Below are positions 7,049 through 35,819 of a DNA stretch of 37,060 nt, piece after piece. The notes beneath the pieces were generated by a model. The model made no database searches, was not told the origin of the DNA, and saw only the letters and a program-made list of their open reading frames with translations. Positions within the stretch are counted from its first letter, which is position 1. Each line of letters opens with the position of its first letter. Source of the stretch: a virus (taxonomy: Duplodnaviria; Caudoviricetes); the IMG/VR virus record IMGVR_UViG_3300022666_000349, positions 1 through 37,060 of that record; one strand, given 5' to 3'. Both the position numbers and the translations under genes were made by a program.

Positions 7049-7396
7049 ATGGATGAGGTCAGGCTGTGCGGCTACCCTGGTTGCGGCAGGCCGCTGGTTA
7101 TGAGGCTGGACGAGACGCCGGCAAGGTTTGCCCGGCGGCTGTACTGCGACAGGACATGCTGTACCCGGCAAAAGACGCTGAAGATAAGACAAAAGCGCGA
7201 AAAGGCGAGAAAGACGCACCGAAAAAGGGGCGAGAGGGTGCAGAGGAAGGCGCCCGTGGAGGTTGCGCCTGTGGCGAAGACGGTTTCCCGTGTCATTCCG
7301 GGCCTGTTGATGGCGCGCAGGCTTCGCGGTTCGGTTTATCAGGAAAGCGGTGTGTGGCTTGGTCACGATGAAGGGGAATTAGTGGCTGATATCTGA
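7049..7396 (+). CDS. Basic Cys-rich hypothetical protein
   Basis: CGYPGC...YCDRTC followed by a K/R-rich region. Confidence 0.55.
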   Translation: MDEVRLCGYPGCGRPLVMRLDETPARFARRLYCDRTCCTRQKTLKIRQKREKARKTHRKRGERVQRKAPVEVAPVAKTVSRVIPGLLMARRLRGSVYQESGVWLGHDEGELVADI

Positions 7397-7397
7397 T

Positions 7398-7439
7398 GTT
7401 CAAAAATATGTTGAACAATTGGGGGCGTTGATGTATTAA
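7398..7439 (+). promoter_or_regulatory. Operator copy 1 overlapping the -35 of a putative late promoter
   Basis: GTTCAA-AAATATG-TTGAAC (7398-7416); TTGAAC-17-TATTAA. Confidence 0.7.
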
Positions 7440-17761: not shown

Positions 17762-17932
17762 GTGGGTATCTATCCTGACTGGCTGGGGCCGTCTATAGAT
17801 GTGGCGGTGGCAAACCCTCCCCCGGACGTGACCGGCCTGGGGTATGCGGCCAGACCGCCGGAGGTAGCCGGGCTGGAATACCAGCCGGTGCTGTACCCGC
17901 CGGAGGTGACGGGTCTTGAGTATGCGGAATAG
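17762..17932 (+). CDS. Small protein with three PP(D/E)V(T/A)GL(G/E)Y repeats
   Basis: GTG start after AGGAGG; three diverged repeats. Confidence 0.55.
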   Translation: MGIYPDWLGPSIDVAVANPPPDVTGLGYAARPPEVAGLEYQPVLYPPEVTGLEYAE

Positions 17933-24339: not shown

Positions 24340-27300
24340 ATGGGCGTTTACGATAAAGAACTACCTGAATTTCTCAACGCGGACATAGATTCCATCCTTG
24401 CGGATTTCCGCTCCAGGCCGATCCCCCCATACACCCCTCCGCCAGCTCCGGAGGAAGAAGACGGCGAATTCGTCAAGGGCCTCAAGCGGGGTGTGGAGGG
24501 CCTGAAAAGCTCGGCCTACGGCGCGGCAGGCCTCGCCGGTTCCGCCCTGGGTATGGACGACGTGCGCGACTGGGGTTACAAGGGTTTTCTGGAGCATGAG
24601 GAAGAAGCGGCCAAACACGCGGGCCGGGTGCAGACCCTCGAAGACATCAAAGGCCTGGGCGATGTGCCGGACTATGTGACAGGGACGTTCGGCAGCCTGG
24701 TTCCATCCATGGCCGAAAGCGCCGTTACGGCGACAGTGGGCAGCCTTATCGGTTCAACCGCCGGTCCGGGGGGCACGGTCGCGGGAGCTGCCACCGGATT
24801 CTTAGGCAAGCAGGCCGTCAAATCCGCAATCCGCAAACTGGCGCGCAAGTATGTCAAGGAAGGCATGGAAAAGAAACTGGCCCGCGAGGCCGCCGAAAGG
24901 GCCGTGGGCTTGCTCCCGGCAAAGAAAATAGCCGCCAACCTCGGGGCCAAGGCGGGCATTGTCGCCGGAACGGCCCCCATCGAAGCGGGCGCCATGTGGG
25001 GCGAGGGGATGCAGCAGGGCAAGGACAACCCCTATTCCGCCGCGGTATTCGGCACCCTGTCCGGCCTGTCGGAACTGGTCGGCGGCGAAGGCGAATTGAT
25101 CGACATATTCACCAACCCGGCCAGGCAAGCGGCCAAGGGAAACATCATCAAGCGCATCGGCATGGAGATGGTCAAGACCATCCCCCAGGAAGCGGCGCAG
25201 GAGGCCACGCAGGAGACCCTTGCCATCATCAACCGCAAGGTGGTGGACCCGTCGTTCGACATGTTCGGCGAGGAAGCGCGCAGCCGCGTGCTCAACTCGG
25301 CGGCGGCCGGGGCCATCGGCGGTGTCGCCTTCGGCGCGGCCGGCGGCGTCAAGTCTGGCAGGGAGAAAGGCCCGCTCACCAGGGCGGCGGAAGCGGCGGT
25401 TCCTCCCGCCACACCTCAACCCGCGATGGAGCCGGACCCCTTCCAGGACGAACAACCGCCCCACTACTCCGAAAAGCTGGAACAGGAAGAACAGCAGATC
25501 CGGGAAGCGGCAGGAGTTAAGCCGAACGAAGAGACCCCTGGCGGAACGACCGCTGAACAGCAACAGGTCGACCAGGACGGACCACTGTCCGGCGCAGGCA
25601 TGGGGCAAACGGACACCGTTCTGTCGGAAGACGAGCAGGCAATCCAGCAGCCGGTGAATGAGCAACAGAGGTCAACGGACGAATTGCTCCTGGACGATGC
25701 GCGGGATTGGGCGGCTGGACAAATAAAACTCGGGAAGACTCACCTGATGCGCCAGATTGCGGAGCCTCCTGACTCATACTACAAACGCCTGATAGACTCC
25801 TACCAAAAGCGCAACCAGAAGCCCCCCGCGCAACCGGCGGACACCGGCCCGAAATACGCCAGCGTCCAGCTTGTCAATCCGGAGTCGGGCGGAATCGAGA
25901 TAGTCAGGCCCGAAGAAGTGGCGGCCCGTCTGCTGTCAGGATGGAGACCCGTTGAACAAGATGTTTCACCCGTCACCCGTCACACATCACCCATCACCGG
26001 CTTGAACGCCGTCACCGAAAAAGAGCGCGAATCGCTCAAATCCGCCATGGAAAGGCTGCAATACTGGGAGCATTCCGGCACGGACGGGGGAAAATCCAAC
26101 AGGGAACAGCTCTATCCGTGGCTCTCCTCCTGGCCCACTACCACCCCTGCCGAAGTCGGCAAGGCAATCGGGCGGTTCCTGGAAGGAAAGAAACTGGGAG
26201 ATGTTCAGCAAAGGCTCGTGGAAGCGGCGCTGGAGTACGAGCGGGAAAACTCCGTCCCCTTCGACATAGCGGAAGAAACAACCGAAGAAGACGCCCCCCA
26301 GGCGCAAAGCGCCCCGGCGGGAAAAACGCCTCTGTCCGGGACCGTTCGCGCCAAGGCGCAAGCCTACGCCCAGTCTGCGGGCATGGACCTGGACGGAGCA
26401 ACGGACGAAGAGATAGCAGCCTTCGTCGAGAAGTACAGAGCATGGAAATGGGCCAAAAGACAGGAAGAACACTTAACGAAGAAGATAGAAAAAACCAGGG
26501 AACCAAAGGCCCTGGAGCGGCTGGGCAAATCACTGGCAGAGGCGACCAGCAAGCGGAAGGAGCTGGAACCGAAAGGACCGGTCGGCGGCGCGGCGCCAAT
26601 TACTGATAACCCATCACCTATTACTGACGTTACCGCTGATCGCAAGGCCCGCTGGGCCGAAGCCAGAAGAAAGCATCTCCTGAATAAGCTGGCGCAGGAA
26701 AAAGAGCCCAAGGCACGGGAACGCATAAGAAATACCCTTGTACGGCTGGAGGCGGAACGCGTTCCGCGACAGGAAGAAAGAAGGGGAAAAGGCGACGCCG
26801 AAAAACCGGCTTCGCAGAATGCCCCTGAAACGGTTTTCGAGGGCAAGGCAATACCAGAGCCTGGCCCGGAAAAGGAATCAGAAAAACATAAAGCCACTGC
26901 TAAACAGTGGCTCTTGACTGCGTTTGACAAGAGAACCGGCGCTGATACGTCGGCAGACACTACCAGCCTTGCCAGCACGGGTGACACAGCTCGCCATGCT
27001 ACCGATTCTACTCTTGATAAAACATTACCATCGGAAGACGCAAGTGTTAAAGATAGCGCCGGGGCCGTTCCGCCTGCCTCGGGGGAAATGTCGAAGGCGC
27101 CAAGTATGGTCAGGGATTTTGCCGCAAAGGTATTGAATGGTGAAGACCATCCAAAAAGACTGGTCTTCAAAGTGACAACGGAAACAAAACGCCAAAAAGT
27201 TATTAACGATACCGGTGTTGATATAGGTGGATCAGTGGAAATGGTTCTTCCCGATTCAATTATCCATGTGAAAAAACGGCACTTGGATATTACTCTCGAC

Positions 27301-30300
27301 GACTGGGAAAGACTCCCTGAGATAGCGGAAACATTCAACGATTCATACATTGGGCGCGCAATTGGAGATCCCAAAACAAAAAGAATGATTTTCGTCATAG
27401 AAAGCGACCCTTATCAATATGTATATGTGGCTGAATTTGCAAGCGGGGGCAGGGGAAAAAGGCTTATCGTTAAAACCTATTTCAAGGATACGTCCAAAAA
27501 TGTAGAAGATTTCCTTGAAAAAAATGCGCAAAAAACAAAAGAGGTTCCTTCTGGTGTCGGGGATCTCACCCAACCTGCTTTACGCCCCCAGAATTCCACC
27601 TCTTCTGTGAATATTGTCGCCAATTCCGATGGCAATGTCAAGGAAAACGAAGGGAAAATAGACGACTTTGGAGAAAAGATAGGCAGTGCGCGGAAGGGCC
27701 GGTTGCGGCAGGCAGAGCAGGGCCAACAGCAGAGCGAACAGAAGAAAACCGTCGGCGAGGAAAAGCCGGTCAGGTTTGCCCTCCGTCCAGACATGAGCAA
27801 CAAGGAAGCCCTTCCTGGCCTGGTGGAAAGAGGCGTAAACAACTATGCGCCGGGAATGAAATTTCCGGATTTCGCCAAAAGGATGAAGGCGGAGCTGGGC
27901 GAATTATGGGAGCGCTTCAAGTCCATGATGTTCAAGGTGTGGCATCAGGTGCGGGCGAAGTTCGCCGAAGAACGGGGGAGCTTGTCGCGGGAACAAAGAG
28001 AGGAAAGCTTGTTTCCTGCCGACGCCAGGGCAGAAGAGGAGAATTTCCGAAAACAGTTAAACGATCCGGATTCTAACCGGAGGTCATTGGTTGAGGTGGG
28101 AAGTACCCCCAAGATTCTAGTCAGATTGGGAGCGCAACAGAAACCACTTTACATATCTCGAACGACCATTGAGAAGATAACAATGCCGGAAGGGGTCGGT
28201 AAAGGAAAACACAATTTGCCGATTGATGTTCTGGACGGTCTCTATCGAAACTTGCATGACCCGGTAATGGTCCTTGAATCAAAAGTTGAGAATATTAAAG
28301 CATTCGTTGTAGTTACCGAGATGTTCGTCAATCAGGGTGGACGGCGGGTACCGGTTATTGCTGCAATTCATATCAACGAGCAGCACGGGCGTAATGTGAT
28401 TAATAGAGTCGCGAGCGTTTACGGTAAGGATAGTCTGAAGTGGTTTGAAAATGAAATATTGGAACGGAGGGTAGTCTACCGTAGTAAACAGAAAAGCCCT
28501 TCATGGCTCATGACTGCTGGGCTCCAATTGCCCAGGGTGAGAGGAGCTATGAAGAGCTTCACTGATTCAAGAATACTTACCGAGGATGATGTTGTCAACC
28601 CGAAATTCGCCGTTACTGCGGAAGCTTACGGCATCCCGGCCGCCGACATTCAGGCGGCTTTCGAGCCGGTCTACAGGAACATGCCCAAGGCTCCGCCCTG
28701 GCGGGTAGTGCAGACGGCGGCGGAGCTGCCCAGGCGAGCGCTGGATGACGCGGCCAGACGCGGGATGCCGCAACGCTTTCTCCAGGCTGTCTACCTGGGT
28801 AATGAAGTCGTCTACGTGGCGGACCATTTCGGTTCCATCGAGGAGGCAAAACAGGTCATCCTCGAAGAGGTCGTAGTGCATCACGGCCTGCGCGCGATCC
28901 TGCCGCGGGATGCCTACGAAAAGCACATGCTCCATGCGGCGCTCTGGTACGCCAACAAGCGCACGGAAGACTGGAAGGCCCTGGCGGAGGGGTACGGGCT
29001 CGACCTCAAGACCCGCGCCGGACGCATCGAAGCGGCGGAAGAAATGCTCGGGCGGGACGCCAGAACCGGCAAGAACTCCACCATGCTCTCCCGCATCATC
29101 GCCGCCGTGAAAGAATTCCTCCGAAGCGTCGGTTTCGATGTGGGGTATGGCGAGGCCGAGATCCGGGAACTGCTCGGCAAGGCCCGCCGGTATATAGAAG
29201 GCAAAGAAGCGCCCTACGAAAAAGAGGGGGAGGGGGGCATCGACTACGGCGCGCTGCTGCGGAAGCTCAGGGAGCAGGGAATCACGGATGAGCAGCTTCA
29301 GGCATTCATGGCGTATGAGCCGGGCGGGGGAAAATTCGCGGGAGTAACTGTGAGGAAGTATCCCGCCACGATGAGTGCCGACAGTATACTGGAAACCCTC
29401 AATCCCAACGTCCGAAACGATGGCGGTTCTGAAATAATTGTAAGAAATGGACCCGAAAAGTCAAGAGATATGAGATTTGCCTTGGCCCTCCTCGAAGACG
29501 TGAAATCCCAAATCATCGAAAAGGGCGTCACCCTCAACACCACGGAACGGGAGGTCTTGGAGGCGGAGCGGCCGATAGCTCTGGAAGCCATCGCCGAGAC
29601 GGTGAAGGATTACGACGAACCGGGCCGGTTCCTGTTCCGGGCGTTCTACGTGGCCGACCAGGAACTTGCCCCCGGCGTGGTGCCATACAACCCCGAGCGC
29701 GGCCACTACGCCGCCGGGGAAGACCTGAAAGGCTCCTGGTGGACCACCTCCCTTTCCACGGCCCAGGAGATAGCCTGGAGCAAGGCCCGATCAGGGAAAA
29801 GGGTCAAGGTTGTCGCGCTGCCAGTGGACAAGTTGCCAAATGGCAACATATACATCCAGAACACCAATCCGCCTGGTTTCGTCTATGATCTCTTCGTGGG
29901 TCTGCCCTCGGACGTTTCCATGAAGGACGTTCGGGAAATGCCGGTGGACGGAGGCGTGCGCTACGCCCTGGCCGGCGACGGCCTGCTCAGATACACGGAA
30001 CAATGGGGGTCCGCCGATGCCTGGAAATCACTCGTGCGGCTCCTGAACCCTCTGGACTGGTCCAGGTTCAGGGAATGGATCGACGAGCACACCCCTGTTC
30101 ATATCATGAACACTGTCGGCCATTGGCTCAGAACCCCGGTGGAAGCGGCAGAAGCGGACCCGAACAAGGCCCCGCTTGTCGATACCGCCCTGGACCGGGA
30201 GAAAAACAAGAACTCCCTCATCCTCAAGCTCCTGGGCTGGTTCGGCGGCAAGGAAAAACCCGCCGGATTCGTGGAGAGATTGACGGAGCAAGTCACCAGC

Positions 30301-33222
30301 TGGGGCAACAAGGACCTGTCCACCGCCTGGGGCGTGATAGCGGACAACTACGCGCGGCTCTCCGGCGGGGACAAGAAGGGCGTCAACCTGCTCATCTGCC
30401 GGGGAGACATAGACGGCAAGGCATGGCGCACCTACGACATGGTGAAGGGCGAGAAAAAACTGGCCGAAAACCTCCCCTCCGAAGCGGCCTTTCAGGCCTA
30501 CCGGGACATCCGGACCCACATCGACACCGTAGTGGCCGACACCATAGAGGCCGAGATGAGAAAGTCGGCGGCGGAAAACGGCATGTCCATGGACGAGGTG
30601 GAAAAGCACATCTTCACCTTCCGCAACAACATGGCCAGACACCCCGGCTGGATGCCGCGCAACCATGGCGAAGGCGACTGGCAGGTAAACGTGTACCAGC
30701 GCATCACGGGCCTCAAGTGGGAAATCGGCCAGTACCGCGCCGCGCATCACTATCAATTCCTCAAGAAAAACGGCGACAGGGTAGACTTCGAAAAGAGCAT
30801 AGACGCCCTGTCCGCCTACCTCCCGTACTTCCCCGGCAAGGCCGTGGCCGACGAGATAAAGACCCTCGCCCGGCGGTTTGGCCTCGCCTACGAGCACGAG
30901 AGCGGCACGGGACGCCAGCGCGTCTATGTGGACCAGGGCGCGGAAAAGCGGCTTGGCAAGGCCATTGCGAAGCTGAAGAAAGACCTTTCCGTTGAGGGAC
31001 TTCCGGAGAAAAAGCGTTTCGAGCTGCAAAGCAAACTGACCGGCCTGGAAGACGCCCTGTTCTTCGTCAAGGGTAACAGCCCGCAAAAGCAGATCCGCTT
31101 CTTCGTCAAGCAGGCGGCCAAAATCATCGGCAAGCTGGAACTGCAAAACAGCGTGAACATCCGCCAGGCGGAAGAGAATCTTGAGCAGGCCATAAAGGAC
31201 AAAGAATCCGCGGCCGAGATAAAGCGGCTCAGGGACGAATTGCAACGCCTGGGGGACGGCAGCATCAAGGTCAAGGTCTACATGAAGCTCCAGTCCTCCC
31301 GCTCCAGGGCCAACAGGCACAAGAAAGAAGTCATGGCCGGCCTGAAAAGGTTCATGCCCGAAAACTACCTGGACTGGGCCTCCTACGAAACAAGGGTGGA
31401 CTTCAACGACCGCTTGACCGAAGCCACCTACGGCGACATGCAGAACGATTTCGCCATGGAACAGGCCCAGTTGCAGGCCGTGGAACGGGCCGCGTCCAAA
31501 CAGGACATCAGCAAGACCGAGGCCGCCGGCATCCGCCATCAGATCGTCCAGTCCCTGGCCGAAATCCTCATGGCCAGGGGCGCCGGGGCCCATCGCATCC
31601 AGCGGGCGCCCTATCTCATCGAGGGATACGAGACCGAAAACCCCATACTGGCCTATCAGGATTACATGACCTCCACGGCGGGCATGATATCCAAGGCCCA
31701 GTACGCCTGCGCCCAGTTCGAAAACTTCCGCTACGCCAGGCCCGAGGTAAAACCCTGGGCCGAGCAGTACATCAGGGACACCCTGCGCAACATGGGCGCG
31801 GCGGACCGCATCGGCGCCAACCTCCGATCCGTCGCGACCCTGGCCTATCTGGGCTTCAAGGTCTCCTCCATGGTAATAAACTCCACCCAGCCGTGGACGC
31901 TGGGGATTGCTGAACTGGGCAAGCACACCCGGCAGAACGCGCTTGTGGCCATCGCCAGAGCGCAAAAGGACATCTTCAGGGGTAAACTGAGCGACGAGGA
32001 AAAGGCGATATTCTCCTCCGAGATCTGGAAGGAGCAGGAACAGAACACCGTCATCCGGGAAATGGCGGGAGCAGGTGAAGGGACAACCGGCAAGATATCC
32101 GGCTTCTTCCACACCCTGACCGGCAAGGCCCTGTCCGGCTTCCAGGAAGTAGAAATGCTCAACCGCAAGACCGTCATCCTGGCCGCCTACAGGAGCTTCC
32201 GGGCGGACGGAATGGAACACGCCGAGGCTCTTGACAAGGCCCTCCGGGTCAACCGGCGGGTAAACTTCGAAATGTCCAGGGCCAACCTGCCGGGCTTCGC
32301 CCAGAAACCGCTGGGAAGGACCGTGTACGCCCTGCAATCGTTCCTGTGGAATAACTGGAACTGGGTCTACAACAACCTCACCAGCGGCAAGAAAGAGGAC
32401 ATGGCGGCCATGCTCCGCTATGCGGCGGCCATGGCCATCATCGGCGGGGCGGCGGCGCTCCCGGGCTGGGACGAGCTCGACAAGCTCTATCAGACCCTCT
32501 TTGGCGAATCGCCCCGGCTGGCCTTCAGGAAATGGACGAAACAACACGCCCGCCAATACGGCGCCCTGGGCGAGATGGTCAACGGCTTCGCCTGGCACGG
32601 ACTCGCCAGCGCCACGGGCGTCAACATCTCCAACGCCATGCGCCTCCAGATCCCCATTGTCTCCCCGCTCCTGTCGGGCGACTCCCTCCCCGAGGCCGCC
32701 GGGGGCGTGTTCACCGGCCTTGCGCAGAAGGGGGGCAGGGCGGTTACCGCGGCCAGCCGGGGGGATTGGCACCGGGCGCTGGAAAACATCTCCCCGGAGG
32801 CCCTGGCCGGAGGCATGCGGGCCTACCGCATGGCCACCAAGGGCGCCACCACCGGAACCGGCAAGGTTATCTTCGACGAAAACGGCAGGCCCATGAAATA
32901 CGGAACCGGTGAAGCGGCTGTCAGGATGCTGGGCTTCCAGCCATCCCGCATCGCGGAACGAAACGACCTGACCAACGTGGAAAAGGGCCTCTCGGCGCAC
33001 TGGAGGGAACAACGGGGGGATCTGCTGGCCGAACTGAGATTGTCAAAACCTGGCCAGCGTAAAGAGGTGATGCTGAAGATAATGAAGTTCAACCGGCGTC
33101 TAAGGACGTCCCAGGCCAACGGACTCGTCCCGGTCATCAAAACGGCGGCCATCCGCCGGACCCTGAGCGACAGGCCCAACAAGGGCAAAGCCGAATGGCA
33201 AAGGGAGCAGTTGAGCGGGTGA
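24340..33222 (+). CDS. 2960-aa polyvalent/internal virion protein with PBECR-like, MuF-C-like, degenerate zincin and possible ART-like modules
   Basis: G/A-rich N-terminus; DSIIHVKKRH...IVKTYFK (~27110-27490); KGKH...LHDPVMV...NRVASVYGKD (~28040-28490); LPD5-like IDDFGEKIGSARK remnant; EEVVVHHGLR; large helical C-terminus. Confidence 0.85.
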   Translation: MGVYDKELPEFLNADIDSILADFRSRPIPPYTPPPAPEEEDGEFVKGLKRGVEGLKSSAYGAAGLAGSALGMDDVRDWGYKGFLEHEEEAAKHAGRVQTLEDIKGLGDVPDYVTGTFGSLVPSMAESAVTATVGSLIGSTAGPGGTVAGAATGFLGKQAVKSAIRKLARKYVKEGMEKKLAREAAERAVGLLPAKKIAANLGAKAGIVAGTAPIEAGAMWGEGMQQGKDNPYSAAVFGTLSGLSELVGGEGELIDIFTNPARQAAKGNIIKRIGMEMVKTIPQEAAQEATQETLAIINRKVVDPSFDMFGEEARSRVLNSAAAGAIGGVAFGAAGGVKSGREKGPLTRAAEAAVPPATPQPAMEPDPFQDEQPPHYSEKLEQEEQQIREAAGVKPNEETPGGTTAEQQQVDQDGPLSGAGMGQTDTVLSEDEQAIQQPVNEQQRSTDELLLDDARDWAAGQIKLGKTHLMRQIAEPPDSYYKRLIDSYQKRNQKPPAQPADTGPKYASVQLVNPESGGIEIVRPEEVAARLLSGWRPVEQDVSPVTRHTSPITGLNAVTEKERESLKSAMERLQYWEHSGTDGGKSNREQLYPWLSSWPTTTPAEVGKAIGRFLEGKKLGDVQQRLVEAALEYERENSVPFDIAEETTEEDAPQAQSAPAGKTPLSGTVRAKAQAYAQSAGMDLDGATDEEIAAFVEKYRAWKWAKRQEEHLTKKIEKTREPKALERLGKSLAEATSKRKELEPKGPVGGAAPITDNPSPITDVTADRKARWAEARRKHLLNKLAQEKEPKARERIRNTLVRLEAERVPRQEERRGKGDAEKPASQNAPETVFEGKAIPEPGPEKESEKHKATAKQWLLTAFDKRTGADTSADTTSLASTGDTARHATDSTLDKTLPSEDASVKDSAGAVPPASGEMSKAPSMVRDFAAKVLNGEDHPKRLVFKVTTETKRQKVINDTGVDIGGSVEMVLPDSIIHVKKRHLDITLDDWERLPEIAETFNDSYIGRAIGDPKTKRMIFVIESDPYQYVYVAEFASGGRGKRLIVKTYFKDTSKNVEDFLEKNAQKTKEVPSGVGDLTQPALRPQNSTSSVNIVANSDGNVKENEGKIDDFGEKIGSARKGRLRQAEQGQQQSEQKKTVGEEKPVRFALRPDMSNKEALPGLVERGVNNYAPGMKFPDFAKRMKAELGELWERFKSMMFKVWHQVRAKFAEERGSLSREQREESLFPADARAEEENFRKQLNDPDSNRRSLVEVGSTPKILVRLGAQQKPLYISRTTIEKITMPEGVGKGKHNLPIDVLDGLYRNLHDPVMVLESKVENIKAFVVVTEMFVNQGGRRVPVIAAIHINEQHGRNVINRVASVYGKDSLKWFENEILERRVVYRSKQKSPSWLMTAGLQLPRVRGAMKSFTDSRILTEDDVVNPKFAVTAEAYGIPAADIQAAFEPVYRNMPKAPPWRVVQTAAELPRRALDDAARRGMPQRFLQAVYLGNEVVYVADHFGSIEEAKQVILEEVVVHHGLRAILPRDAYEKHMLHAALWYANKRTEDWKALAEGYGLDLKTRAGRIEAAEEMLGRDARTGKNSTMLSRIIAAVKEFLRSVGFDVGYGEAEIRELLGKARRYIEGKEAPYEKEGEGGIDYGALLRKLREQGITDEQLQAFMAYEPGGGKFAGVTVRKYPATMSADSILETLNPNVRNDGGSEIIVRNGPEKSRDMRFALALLEDVKSQIIEKGVTLNTTEREVLEAERPIALEAIAETVKDYDEPGRFLFRAFYVADQELAPGVVPYNPERGHYAAGEDLKGSWWTTSLSTAQEIAWSKARSGKRVKVVALPVDKLPNGNIYIQNTNPPGFVYDLFVGLPSDVSMKDVREMPVDGGVRYALAGDGLLRYTEQWGSADAWKSLVRLLNPLDWSRFREWIDEHTPVHIMNTVGHWLRTPVEAAEADPNKAPLVDTALDREKNKNSLILKLLGWFGGKEKPAGFVERLTEQVTSWGNKDLSTAWGVIADNYARLSGGDKKGVNLLICRGDIDGKAWRTYDMVKGEKKLAENLPSEAAFQAYRDIRTHIDTVVADTIEAEMRKSAAENGMSMDEVEKHIFTFRNNMARHPGWMPRNHGEGDWQVNVYQRITGLKWEIGQYRAAHHYQFLKKNGDRVDFEKSIDALSAYLPYFPGKAVADEIKTLARRFGLAYEHESGTGRQRVYVDQGAEKRLGKAIAKLKKDLSVEGLPEKKRFELQSKLTGLEDALFFVKGNSPQKQIRFFVKQAAKIIGKLELQNSVNIRQAEENLEQAIKDKESAAEIKRLRDELQRLGDGSIKVKVYMKLQSSRSRANRHKKEVMAGLKRFMPENYLDWASYETRVDFNDRLTEATYGDMQNDFAMEQAQLQAVERAASKQDISKTEAAGIRHQIVQSLAEILMARGAGAHRIQRAPYLIEGYETENPILAYQDYMTSTAGMISKAQYACAQFENFRYARPEVKPWAEQYIRDTLRNMGAADRIGANLRSVATLAYLGFKVSSMVINSTQPWTLGIAELGKHTRQNALVAIARAQKDIFRGKLSDEEKAIFSSEIWKEQEQNTVIREMAGAGEGTTGKISGFFHTLTGKALSGFQEVEMLNRKTVILAAYRSFRADGMEHAEALDKALRVNRRVNFEMSRANLPGFAQKPLGRTVYALQSFLWNNWNWVYNNLTSGKKEDMAAMLRYAAAMAIIGGAAALPGWDELDKLYQTLFGESPRLAFRKWTKQHARQYGALGEMVNGFAWHGLASATGVNISNAMRLQIPIVSPLLSGDSLPEAAGGVFTGLAQKGGRAVTAASRGDWHRALENISPEALAGGMRAYRMATKGATTGTGKVIFDENGRPMKYGTGEAAVRMLGFQPSRIAERNDLTNVEKGLSAHWREQRGDLLAELRLSKPGQRKEVMLKIMKFNRRLRTSQANGLVPVIKTAAIRRTLSDRPNKGKAEWQREQLSG
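26880..27050 (-). ncRNA. Candidate antisense small RNA unit A (promoter, fold-back, terminator)
   Basis: TTAACA(27050-27045)-17-TAATGT; stem AGAATCGGTAGC/GCGCCGGTTCT; terminator AGCCACTG/CAGTGGCT plus U-rich tail. Confidence 0.55.
27528..27641 (-). ncRNA. Candidate antisense small RNA unit B with a T-arm-like hairpin
   Basis: TTGACA(27641-27636)-17-GACAAT; AAGAGGT/ACCTCTT and TTCTGG/CCAGAA stems; GTTGGG-TGAGATC-CCCGAC; ends TTTTGTTTTTT. Confidence 0.62.
28485..28598 (-). ncRNA. Candidate antisense small RNA unit C
   Basis: TTGACA(28598-28593)-17-TATTCT; 16-bp stem AAGCTCTTCATAGCTC/GAGCCATGAAGGGCTT; inner CTGGGC-AATTGGA-GCCCAG; U-rich end. Confidence 0.62.
29352..29464 (-). ncRNA. Candidate antisense small RNA unit D
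   Basis: TTGACT(29464-29459)-16-TACAAT; CCGCCATCG/CGTGGCGG closing stem, CGTTTCGGACG hairpin, GATTGAG/CTCATC arm. Confidence 0.55.
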
Positions 33223-34390: not shown

Positions 34391-34436
34391 TTGACGGCTC
34401 AATTTGAAGGTGATAGCGTTCATCAATATGTTGAAC
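34391..34436 (+). promoter_or_regulatory. Antirepressor-operon promoter with operator copy 3
   Basis: TTGACG-17-TAGCGT; GTTCAT-CAATATG-TTGAAC (34418-34436). Confidence 0.7.
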
Positions 34437-34580
34437 ACATCAAGAAAAAACCCCTTGAAAAACCCTCCGGATACTGGTAAAGGTATCGGTATCCAACCCA
34501 AGGGCGGCCGCGACCTAACAGCGGAACTTTTGTTTTCGGGAGAGAAAACCCGGAAACCTTATCACCGGCAAGAGCAAACC

Positions 34581-34693: not shown

Positions 34694-35473
34694 ATGAAAG
34701 GAGAATTGATTGTAGCTGGCGTAGGAATCAAGCAGGATGCGGAAGGCCGATACTGCCTGAATGACCTTCACCGGGCAGCAGTTTCAAGCGGGGCGAACGC
34801 AAGATCCAAGGAGCCTAACAAGTTCTTTGCTAGTCCGCAAACAATTGAGCTTGTTAAGGAATTATCCGATACCCAAAATTCGGGTATCGCTCCAGTCAAT
34901 GCAATAAGAGGTGGAATAGAGCAAGGTACCTACGTTTGTAAAGAACTCATCTACGCCTACGCCATGTGGATAAGCGCTGCTTTTCATCTCAAGGTCATCC
35001 GCGCATACGATGAAATGGTAACATCTCCACCGGCCATCGACCCCATGCAGATCCTCAACGACCCGGTCACCATGCGCGGGCTGCTTTTGAACTACTCCGA
35101 AAAAGTAATCACCCTCGAAACCAAGGTCGCCGACCTGGAACCCAAGGCCGAGGCCCTCGACCGCATCGCCACTGCCGACGGCAGCCTCTGCATCACCAAC
35201 GCTGCCAAGGATCTCCAGGTCCGGCCCAAGGTCCTCTTCGGCTACCTCTCCCAGAACAGATGGATATACCGCCGCCAGGGTGGAACCGGCTGGGTCGCCT
35301 ATCAGGACAAGCTCCAGCAGGGACTCCTCGAGCACAAGGTTACCGTGGTCACCCGTGGCGACGGTTCGGAAAAAATGACCGAGCAGGTGCTGATAACCTC
35401 GAAAGGCATGGCCAGGCTGGCGGAGCTTCTCAACCCGTCACCCTTGCGTCTCGTGGCGGGCGGTTTCAAATGA
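34694..35473 (+). CDS. Phage antirepressor (KilA-N plus ANT/KilA-C)
   Basis: QDAEGRYCLNDLHRA...GTYVCKELIYAYAMWISAAFHLKVIRAYD; C-terminal PKAEALDRI...QVLITSKG. Confidence 0.93.
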   Translation: MKGELIVAGVGIKQDAEGRYCLNDLHRAAVSSGANARSKEPNKFFASPQTIELVKELSDTQNSGIAPVNAIRGGIEQGTYVCKELIYAYAMWISAAFHLKVIRAYDEMVTSPPAIDPMQILNDPVTMRGLLLNYSEKVITLETKVADLEPKAEALDRIATADGSLCITNAAKDLQVRPKVLFGYLSQNRWIYRRQGGTGWVAYQDKLQQGLLEHKVTVVTRGDGSEKMTEQVLITSKGMARLAELLNPSPLRLVAGGFK

Positions 35474-35746: not shown

Positions 35747-35792
35747 TTGACTCACTGGAGGCTTTCTAGTATTGTTCAACATTATATTGAAC
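35747..35792 (+). promoter_or_regulatory. Lysis-cassette promoter with operator copy 4
   Basis: TTGACT-17-TATTGT; GTTCAA-CATTATA-TTGAAC (35774-35792). Confidence 0.72.
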
Positions 35793-35819
35793 ATCGAGAA
35801 ACCAGGGAGCGAGAAGGTT

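Follow-up and report, generated by a model that had tools for sequence, protein, structure and literature searches.

The short peptide GLQLP, which trails the MuF-C domain of a large phage protein, is confirmed by comparison of homologous sequences to mirror a small RNA gene that is conserved on the other strand, with a promoter of its own, a covarying rod that ends in a fixed loop, and a U-tract. It is suggested here, with a probability of roughly 0.55, that this antisense RNA is an inhibitor that binds the domain encoded just upstream, a predicted RNase of the BECR fold, nuclease and RNA travelling as one in-frame cassette; it would thus be a domain-specific RNA antitoxin, similar in action to those of toxin-antitoxin (TA) systems of type III without being a member of that type. 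The earlier note on this DNA, in which an RNA constraint on the peptide was proposed, understated the case, as the hairpin is part of a whole transcription unit and the arrangement is family-wide and found also in satellite-like elements.

The polyvalent gene and its MuF-C domain

The DNA analysed here (the window, 37,060 nt) is a 37-kb phage contig in which genes for a terminase, a P22-like portal and capsid proteins are followed by an ORF of 2,960 aa, the product of which matches PHROG 616 and the DarB-like phrog_10089. Two domains were recognised in it by Pfam, PBECR3 at aa 946-1055 and MuF_C (PF18819) at aa 1289-1387, the latter with an E value of 4e-18 and 65.9 bits against a curated cut-off of 27.6. 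Both are housed in low-GC islands. The gene, its MuF-C domain and the antisense RNA gene behind it (unit C) are as follows.

24340..33222, plus strand: polyvalent protein gene, 2,960 aa (ORF call; Pfam MuF_C and PBECR3; 3' of the terminase, portal and capsid genes)
28084..28500, plus strand: MuF-C (PBECR-type) domain, BECR fold, predicted RNase (Pfam PF18819; structure model)
28570..28598, minus strand: sigma70-type promoter TTGACA-17-TATTCT (promoter scan; the complement encodes the peptide signature IL..DDVV)
28486..28563, minus strand: predicted small RNA of about 77 nt (fold; covariance-model hit; homologous Sakai start site)
28494..28559, minus strand: outer closing stem, arms 28559-28544 and 28509-28494 (fold; covariation across 56 sequences)
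28517..28535, minus strand: apical hairpin CUGGGC-AAUUGGA-GCCCAG (reverse complement of the GLQLP codons; fold)
28486..28495, minus strand: terminator-like U-tract after the stem (the complement encodes a Lys-rich KQK signature)

The predicted structure of the MuF-C domain (pLDDT 93.8) appears to have the BECR fold, with a helix followed by a meandering sheet, and its best structural matches are BrnT (Z 6.6), a CdiA tRNase (Z 6.5) and colicin D (Z 5.5). All of the top 11 matches are BrnT, CdiA, colicin D, RelE-type or other toxin-antitoxin chains, with middling Z scores of 5.0-6.6, and the fold is matched to toxin RNases that normally need an inhibitor. A Foldseek search with the model gave nothing at an E value of 0.001 or below, and a sequence search of solved structures gave no match. 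According to the available text of Iyer et al. 2017 (PMC5512222), MuF-C and PBECR domains are predicted BECR-fold RNases of polyvalent proteins, likely to be packaged and injected, and have a His in their N-terminal part and a C-terminal Ser or Thr. The domain of the window keeps Lys-His and the Ser of ASVY, which may correspond to these residues, and K36, H37 and S101 are invariant in the 10-sequence alignment A2. RNase activity of MuF-C is a prediction, in the cited literature too. In a model of the tail, the helix before GLQLP is confidently predicted, the ten residues that include GLQLP have a mean pLDDT of 71, and a disordered stretch follows.

The antisense RNA gene

The residues AGLQLPR are encoded, in the frame of 24340-33222, by GCT GGG CTC CAA TTG CCC AGG (28516-28536), and the minus strand from 28535 to 28517 reads CTGGGC-AATTGGA-GCCCAG, so that the codons are the reverse complement of a hairpin just as the earlier note had claimed. 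The rest of its description is also borne out. The 6-bp hairpin is nested within a stem of 16 pairs, an outer helix of 12+4 pairs around one A-C mismatch, and the TTGACA-17-TATTCT promoter is present on the minus strand at 28598-28570. After the outer stem, the minus strand continues with UUUUCUGUUU.

The promoter-like site alone proves little, because six such sites were found in 10.5 kb where 3.2 were expected. The minus strand from 28565 to 28485 folds at -37 kcal/mol (z -4.67; none of 200 shuffles was as good) and the plus strand of the same stretch folds equally well (z -5.29); the strand was for that reason assigned not from the fold but from the promoter, the U-tract, the asymmetry of G-U pairs in homologues and a published start site. 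By analogy with that start, mapped in E. coli Sakai, the +1 of the window RNA is predicted at 28563. The match of the covariance model at the window RNA holds by construction. Rfam gave only three chance-level matches in the window and no gathering-level match in 20 loci.

Codon and covariation analysis of homologues

Homologues were searched for with the domain core only, the tail being left out of the query to avoid circularity (alignments A1 and A2; A1 proved too diverse for pattern seeding and the closer A2 was taken instead). Word-indexed protein searches gave few relatives (2 and 4), a single-protein locus search gave one, and about 15 early pattern matches, with neither domain nor unit, looked like chance. 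From 118 loci came 122 domain hits and from these 78 distinct domains with a full tail, 63 of which had an XLQLX-like anchor, two of the 63 being spurious. The search was seeded with loci that have the motif, a bias toward this subfamily, and the loci are not phylogenetically independent.

Where the motif reads L-Q-L, the Gln codon is CAA in 55 of 55 cases and the second Leu codon is TTG in 55 of 55, compared with 54% and 24% in the cores of the same domains. The expectation of the earlier note that synonymous sites in L-Q-L would be invariant therefore stands for these two residues and fails for the first Leu, the third base of which is fairly free (CTC 42, CTG 8, CTT 5 and CTA 3 of 63). Its second expectation, of compensatory changes in the stem, agrees with the data even where the peptide is radically altered. 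The four core pairs of the hairpin are kept through AAGC/GCTT (KLQLL), GCGC/GCGC (ALQLR), GGAC/GTCC (GLQLS) and GGGG/CCCC (GVQFP), with 95.5% of their cells paired and compensatory changes at each; the outermost pair is broken in nine RLQLP cases and one inner pair in a single case. For the structure named by hand on the 56-sequence alignment, 76% of cells are paired and 20 of the 21 pairs show two-sided change. The covariation score, which relatedness and hand-naming inflate, is 0.447 against 0.199 for shuffled alignments (none of 500 shuffles reached it; slid controls gave 0.11-0.25), and the test leans toward the outer helix, which had been picked out manually in single folds. RNAalifold recovered only the 4-bp apical hairpin from alignment A4.

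The recurrence of GLQLP after related domains, given in the earlier note, is real. In representative proteins 194 domain hits yielded 158 anchored motifs, 93 of them GLQLP, the other 36 hits having no such LQL motif, and in 148 of the 158 the residues flanking LQL could be encoded by reverse-complement codons, where shuffling gave 120.6. The fixed CAA and TTG codons, the compensatory stems and the retention of the RNA in intergenic copies, where the reading frame is closed, together support the proposal that the peptide motif is conserved through constraint on the RNA.

The unit across the family and transcription of a homologue

Among the 61 anchored loci, a minus-strand promoter scoring at least 9/12 is present in 46 (34 of 425 control windows), a U-tract of at least 6 U in 8 in 55, and a fold with z below -2 in 53. 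The distance from start to hairpin is mostly 24, 27 or 30 nt, that is, it changes in whole codons. G-U pairs in the homologues number 156 on the minus strand versus 66 on the plus strand. When promoter, closed stem and U-tract were combined in one unit test, 67 of 78 tails were positive; the sense strand of the tails and the interiors of the domains each gave 0 of 78. Nine anchored tails were missed, six of them tandem arrays, and 15 of the 17 tails that have no peptide anchor were positive, the RNA unit being thus retained more widely than the peptide. Tandem RNA units are found in frame inside the polyvalent gene at nine loci (L034, L050, L109, L114, L117, L160, L163, L164 and L169), and tandem copies are often two different variants under one promoter.

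Gene ECs1242 of the Sp5 prophage in E. coli Sakai carries a homologous unit. In the available part of the Sakai dRNA-seq table an antisense start is given at 1301472 with an enrichment of 24.07, a value that is distinct from abundance (PMC7547250 Dataset S1), and the sequence upstream of it is the predicted promoter, TTGCGA-17-TATTTT. The check covered the start of this RNA, and antisense starts are common in Sp5, with 59 rows in all. A second antisense start in ECs1242 (1300538) was considered as another unit and rejected, as it lies in an HEIIHH peptidase region with no such RNA.

In some phage loci the RNA has no MuF-C domain detected nearby (L005, L013, L060, L068 and L082), and in others it is retained beside a broken one (L216, L236 and L207). 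Recent loss of the domain, action in trans, or another target would fit these cases.

Other domain families

The same kind of unit test was applied to 45 genomes already known to hold MuF-C. A unit follows 10 of 12 PBECR3 hits (the 12 above the cut-off, of 19 rows) and 15 of 18 LPD3 hits (7 of 9 among the strong hits and 8 of 9 among the weak ones, all 18 rows being counted). It follows only one of 22 ART-PolyVal (ADP-ribosyltransferase) hits, these being 22 of 30 rows after removal of one near-duplicate and of partial or sub-cut-off rows. In 19 inspected ORFs no unit lies directly after LPD1, LPD5, RadC, ArdC-N, MPTase, LPD23 or LPD39, and PBECR1 gave one weak match in 59 genomes or records. 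The RNAs linked to LPD3 (L259, L275, L274, L276, L264 and L273) are of several sequence types, which suggests that LPD3 may also be a BECR-like domain with subfamily-specific RNAs. Those linked to PBECR3 are branched, with a CGYUYYGGRCGU-type hairpin common to nine of 12 loci. The MuF-C covariance model was run on five loci of PBECR3 and LPD3 and matched none of them, and the type of RNA therefore follows the domain family.

Three further units of the window can be placed in this context.

27175..27504, plus strand: PBECR3 domain, protein part of unit B (Pfam PF18812, E 3.5e-07, isolated domain)
27528..27641, minus strand: antisense RNA gene of unit B, after PBECR3 (TTGACA-17-GACAAT promoter, branched RNA, U-tract; z -3.79)
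26922..27050, minus strand: unit A, a tentative remnant (TTAACA-17-TAATGT, weaker branched RNA, z -1.91 only)
29407..29464, minus strand: unit D, a remnant (TTGACT-16-TACAAT promoter; PBECR3-type CGUUUCGGACGUU hairpin; no domain and no closing stem)

Unit A follows an apparent domain remnant, with no Pfam match upstream, and a tblastn search of unit B against phages gave no match. In a close relative, L001, about 1.6 kb of other domains stand in place of the unit D region.

Copies of the RNA without the protein

The RNA is also found apart from the protein. In L122 an intergenic copy (at 1-616, between two ORFs) has a near-consensus TTGACA-17-TATACA promoter and a z of -7.4; the ORF downstream may encode a relaxase-like protein, which its start resembles. 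L307 is a complete circle of 10,832 nt with an integrase, AlpA and a P4-type primase (Pfam on 11 ORFs), and contains, with no MuF-C, an intergenic copy of two hairpin units for which no promoter was found at the scan threshold. One of the two is nearly identical to the Aeromonas-phage-type unit of L006 and L128, with both arms of the outer stem changed. The E. coli islands L308 and L309, which lack MuF-C, contain arrays of five and three variant units under a TTGCTC-17-TATAAT promoter, all the opposite frames being interrupted by stops, in the company of AlpA-type, Icd-like, primase, SSB, ProQ/FinO and PerC genes (RefSeq annotation of 18-kb stretches). In gene content L307, L308 and L309 appear to be PICI/P4-like satellites, with integrase, AlpA and primase and no capsid or tail genes of their own, the 18-kb stretch of L309 ending before it reaches an integrase.

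In these arrays the stems are GGGC/GCCC, GAGC/GCTC and GTGC/GCAC. The units mirror GLQLP, ELQLL and VLQLH of phages, and unit 1 can be traced to a prophage copy, L323. The satellite units are 88-92% identical to phage units; their loops are mostly AACUG (four of five in L308, three of three in L309) where the phage copies have AAUUG. We infer the helper phages of the three elements from similarity of RNA sequence only. At least 80% of the L308 array is present in 113 of 5,426 E. coli genomes, and it is intergenic in eight of eight among the matches listed, its context having been examined in two islands. The promoter of the satellite array has no entry in the Sakai TSS table.

Two further strong hairpins of about 100 nt, of a non-MuF-C type (L308 8790-9270; L309 8790-9230; L120), separate units 1 and 2 in the satellite arrays and are possibly the partner RNA of another domain family. 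The array lies directly 3' of genes for a ProQ/FinO-family protein and PerC (L308 8075-8804; L309 8176-8803), and the ProQ/FinO protein might bind to the RNA of the array or stabilise it.

Relationship to known systems

The arrangement shares several features with type III TA systems (ToxIN, CptIN and TenpIN, to which AbiF and AvcID are related), namely a structured small RNA beside a predicted RNase, a host promoter, sometimes tandem non-identical repeats and, as proposed here, direct inhibition of protein by RNA. In type III systems, according to the available text of PMC12283969, an array of pseudoknot repeats lies upstream on the same strand and is co-transcribed with the toxin, a terminator standing between them, whereas the RNA of unit C is antisense, nested in the coding sequence and downstream of the domain. 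It appears to form a plain rod or a three-way junction. Covariation supports the nested rod, with tandem copies in some loci. The protein is likewise a BECR-fold domain within a phage protein of 2,000-4,000 aa and not a solo toxin of the ToxN type, and neither ToxN, CptN, TenpN or AbiF nor an Rfam antitoxin was recognised, the Pfam assignment being MuF_C.

Type I TA and cis-antisense RNAs such as those of hok/sok pair with the leader or the end of a short toxin mRNA. Unit C resembles them in that a small RNA, equipped with a promoter and a terminator of its own, faces a putative toxin gene on the other strand. It differs in that it lies in the middle of the ORF, is fully folded, keeps its loop across phyla and occurs without its mRNA; the overlap is at codons ~1383-1408 of a 2,960-aa ORF and not with the leader or end of a gene for a small membrane toxin.

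Integrase, AlpA, primase, Icd-like, SSB and PerC genes make up the gene set of PICI/P4-type satellites. The elements described above, of 10-15 kb, resemble these in such genes and depart from them in their non-coding array of helper-derived RNA units, of which a search of the literature on satellites found no description.

The domains themselves conform to the PBECR and MuF-C domains known from polyvalent proteins (Iyer et al. 2017, PMC5512222; PF18819, PF18812 and PF18798), being above the Pfam cut-off, BECR-like in the model and set among structural genes. The available text of PMC5512222 describes no cognate RNA or immunity partner, the words antisense and noncoding each occurring 0 times. 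A 2026 preprint on BECR domains (10.64898/2026.08.28.747851) discusses, in its available part, protein immunity only, and an antisense RNA of MuF-C is mentioned neither there nor in that of PMC13502914. Searches of the open literature found no description of this RNA, single instances being possible in subscription papers, bioRxiv supplements and motif collections outside Rfam. EHEC sRNA lists such as the EcOnc set could include single instances. With no Rfam match and no published description found, the domain-linked antisense RNA families appear to be new.

Function of the RNA

The loop is fixed across phyla, each nuclease-like family has one type of RNA, other domains have none after them, the promoter is of host type, and the RNA is of use to a parasite that lacks the protein. 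Taken together these argue that the RNA is a ligand of its domain. Inhibition would be the most likely role of such a ligand, since this is a fold of toxin RNases and a protein partner for immunity has not been described; RNA antitoxins of RNases are established in type III systems (PMC12283969, available text). In the mechanism that we infer, which takes in binding to the domain, its toxicity, its delivery by the virion and the relation of satellites to helpers, the RNA would be made from the host sigma70 promoter in lysogens and during virion production, and would keep the nuclease domain quiet in both. It might also shield lysogens when sibling virions bring in that same domain, to which a naive cell without the RNA would be exposed. 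Satellites dependent on such helper phages may collect variant RNAs and so disarm the domains of several helpers. The AACUG loop of the satellites, as against AAUUG in phages, is not directly explained by an antitoxin, and some MuF-C members may have nothing to neutralise, as the available text of Iyer et al. 2017 (PMC5512222) calls the MuF-C of Mu inactive and probably RNA-binding. A broader version of the proposal, which we put somewhat short of even odds, is that every BECR-fold RNase domain of polyvalent proteins carries its own RNA immunity gene, antisense in the linker behind it, that this gives lysogens an RNA-based defence against nucleases delivered by virions and allows shuffling of domains with no need of a partner gene, and that satellites pirate the RNAs into multi-specific arrays with changed loops against several helpers.

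A different role for the same ligand would be that of a cofactor, forming a ribonucleoprotein for loading, ejection or anti-defence of the virion protein, with satellites using or reprogramming the helper protein through their own RNA. The domain-specific pairing would be identical, RNA binding is what has been predicted for the inactive Mu domain, ECs1242 is essential for Sp5 morphogenesis (PMC5155283, available text), and in the AACUG loop peculiar to satellites the ligand might have been reprogrammed. The RNA is, however, almost fully paired, with no variable guide-like single-stranded segment, its host sigma70-type promoter is active in a mainly lysogenic culture and not obviously late, and domain content differs between close relatives such as L001, so that no single domain looks structurally essential. 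We consider this role unlikely, if worth keeping in view.

It seems improbable that the RNA acts on the mRNA instead, silencing leaky expression of a toxic domain by cis-antisense pairing or transcription interference, with satellite copies pairing to the late mRNA of the helper. Complementarity to the mRNA is full by construction, a strong promoter is convergent, and satellite units have 88-92% identity to phage units, yet cis pairing has no need of a loop that is kept from Enterobacteria to Clostridia while the stems turn over. The RNA is moreover a closed rod, with its end at the boundary of the domain; it lies well within a 9-kb ORF and far from any translation start, and the AACUG loop of the satellites mismatches the helper mRNA.

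A host factor might instead be the target, the RNA serving for instance to decoy a protein of defence or one that binds RNA, and its link to the domain being one of descent only. The orphan copies without a domain (L122, L307, L308 and L068) would agree with this, and there is a loose likeness to an anticodon arm in the 7-nt loop and its short stem. U33 is invariant in the anticodon loop of tRNA and is missing from the loop here, and three domain families each have their own type of RNA where non-BECR domains have none, which makes a host target more doubtful still. Anticodon mimicry in particular is weak, the central triplet being an anticodon by construction, and the GVQFP and AACUG variants speak against a kissing loop through the palindromic CAAUUG. 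Of the 12 loci found in a scan for CAG-type loops, none had MuF-C and most were due to chance. Lastly, although G146, Q148 and P150 are at least 90% conserved in alignment A6 and the preceding helix is confidently modelled, so that a small protein-level role of GLQLP is possible, protein function as the sole cause of the motif, with the hairpin as a by-product, is refuted by the fixed synonymous sites, the reverse-complement coding of flanking residues, the units in motif-less tails and the non-coding copies, and has almost no probability left.

If the RNA is an antitoxin, it would be a candidate for the missing partner of PBECR-type domains, the control of which has been in question since 2017. 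Peptide signatures at the C-terminal end of several phage domains in Pfam (GLQLP, the TSET/NVQN type, IL..D.V and KK motifs) can be read as shadows of an overlapping RNA gene, the RNAs form uncatalogued families from Enterobacteria to Clostridia, and the satellite-like arrays in 113 E. coli genomes point to an arms race between satellite and helper at the level of RNA.

Other features of the window

Near-palindromic AT-rich sites of the form TGTTCAA...TTGAACA occur at 7395-7419, 34418-34447 and 35763-35795 and are probably repressor operators. At 17819-17922 the end of an ORF contains three short repeats that encode units of the PP(D/E)V(T/A)GL type. An open frame of 994 codons (30028-33012, minus strand) runs antisense to the C-terminal part of the large gene and is probably a by-product of high GC. 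A KilA-N and ANT antirepressor gene (34694-35473, plus strand) follows the structural module.
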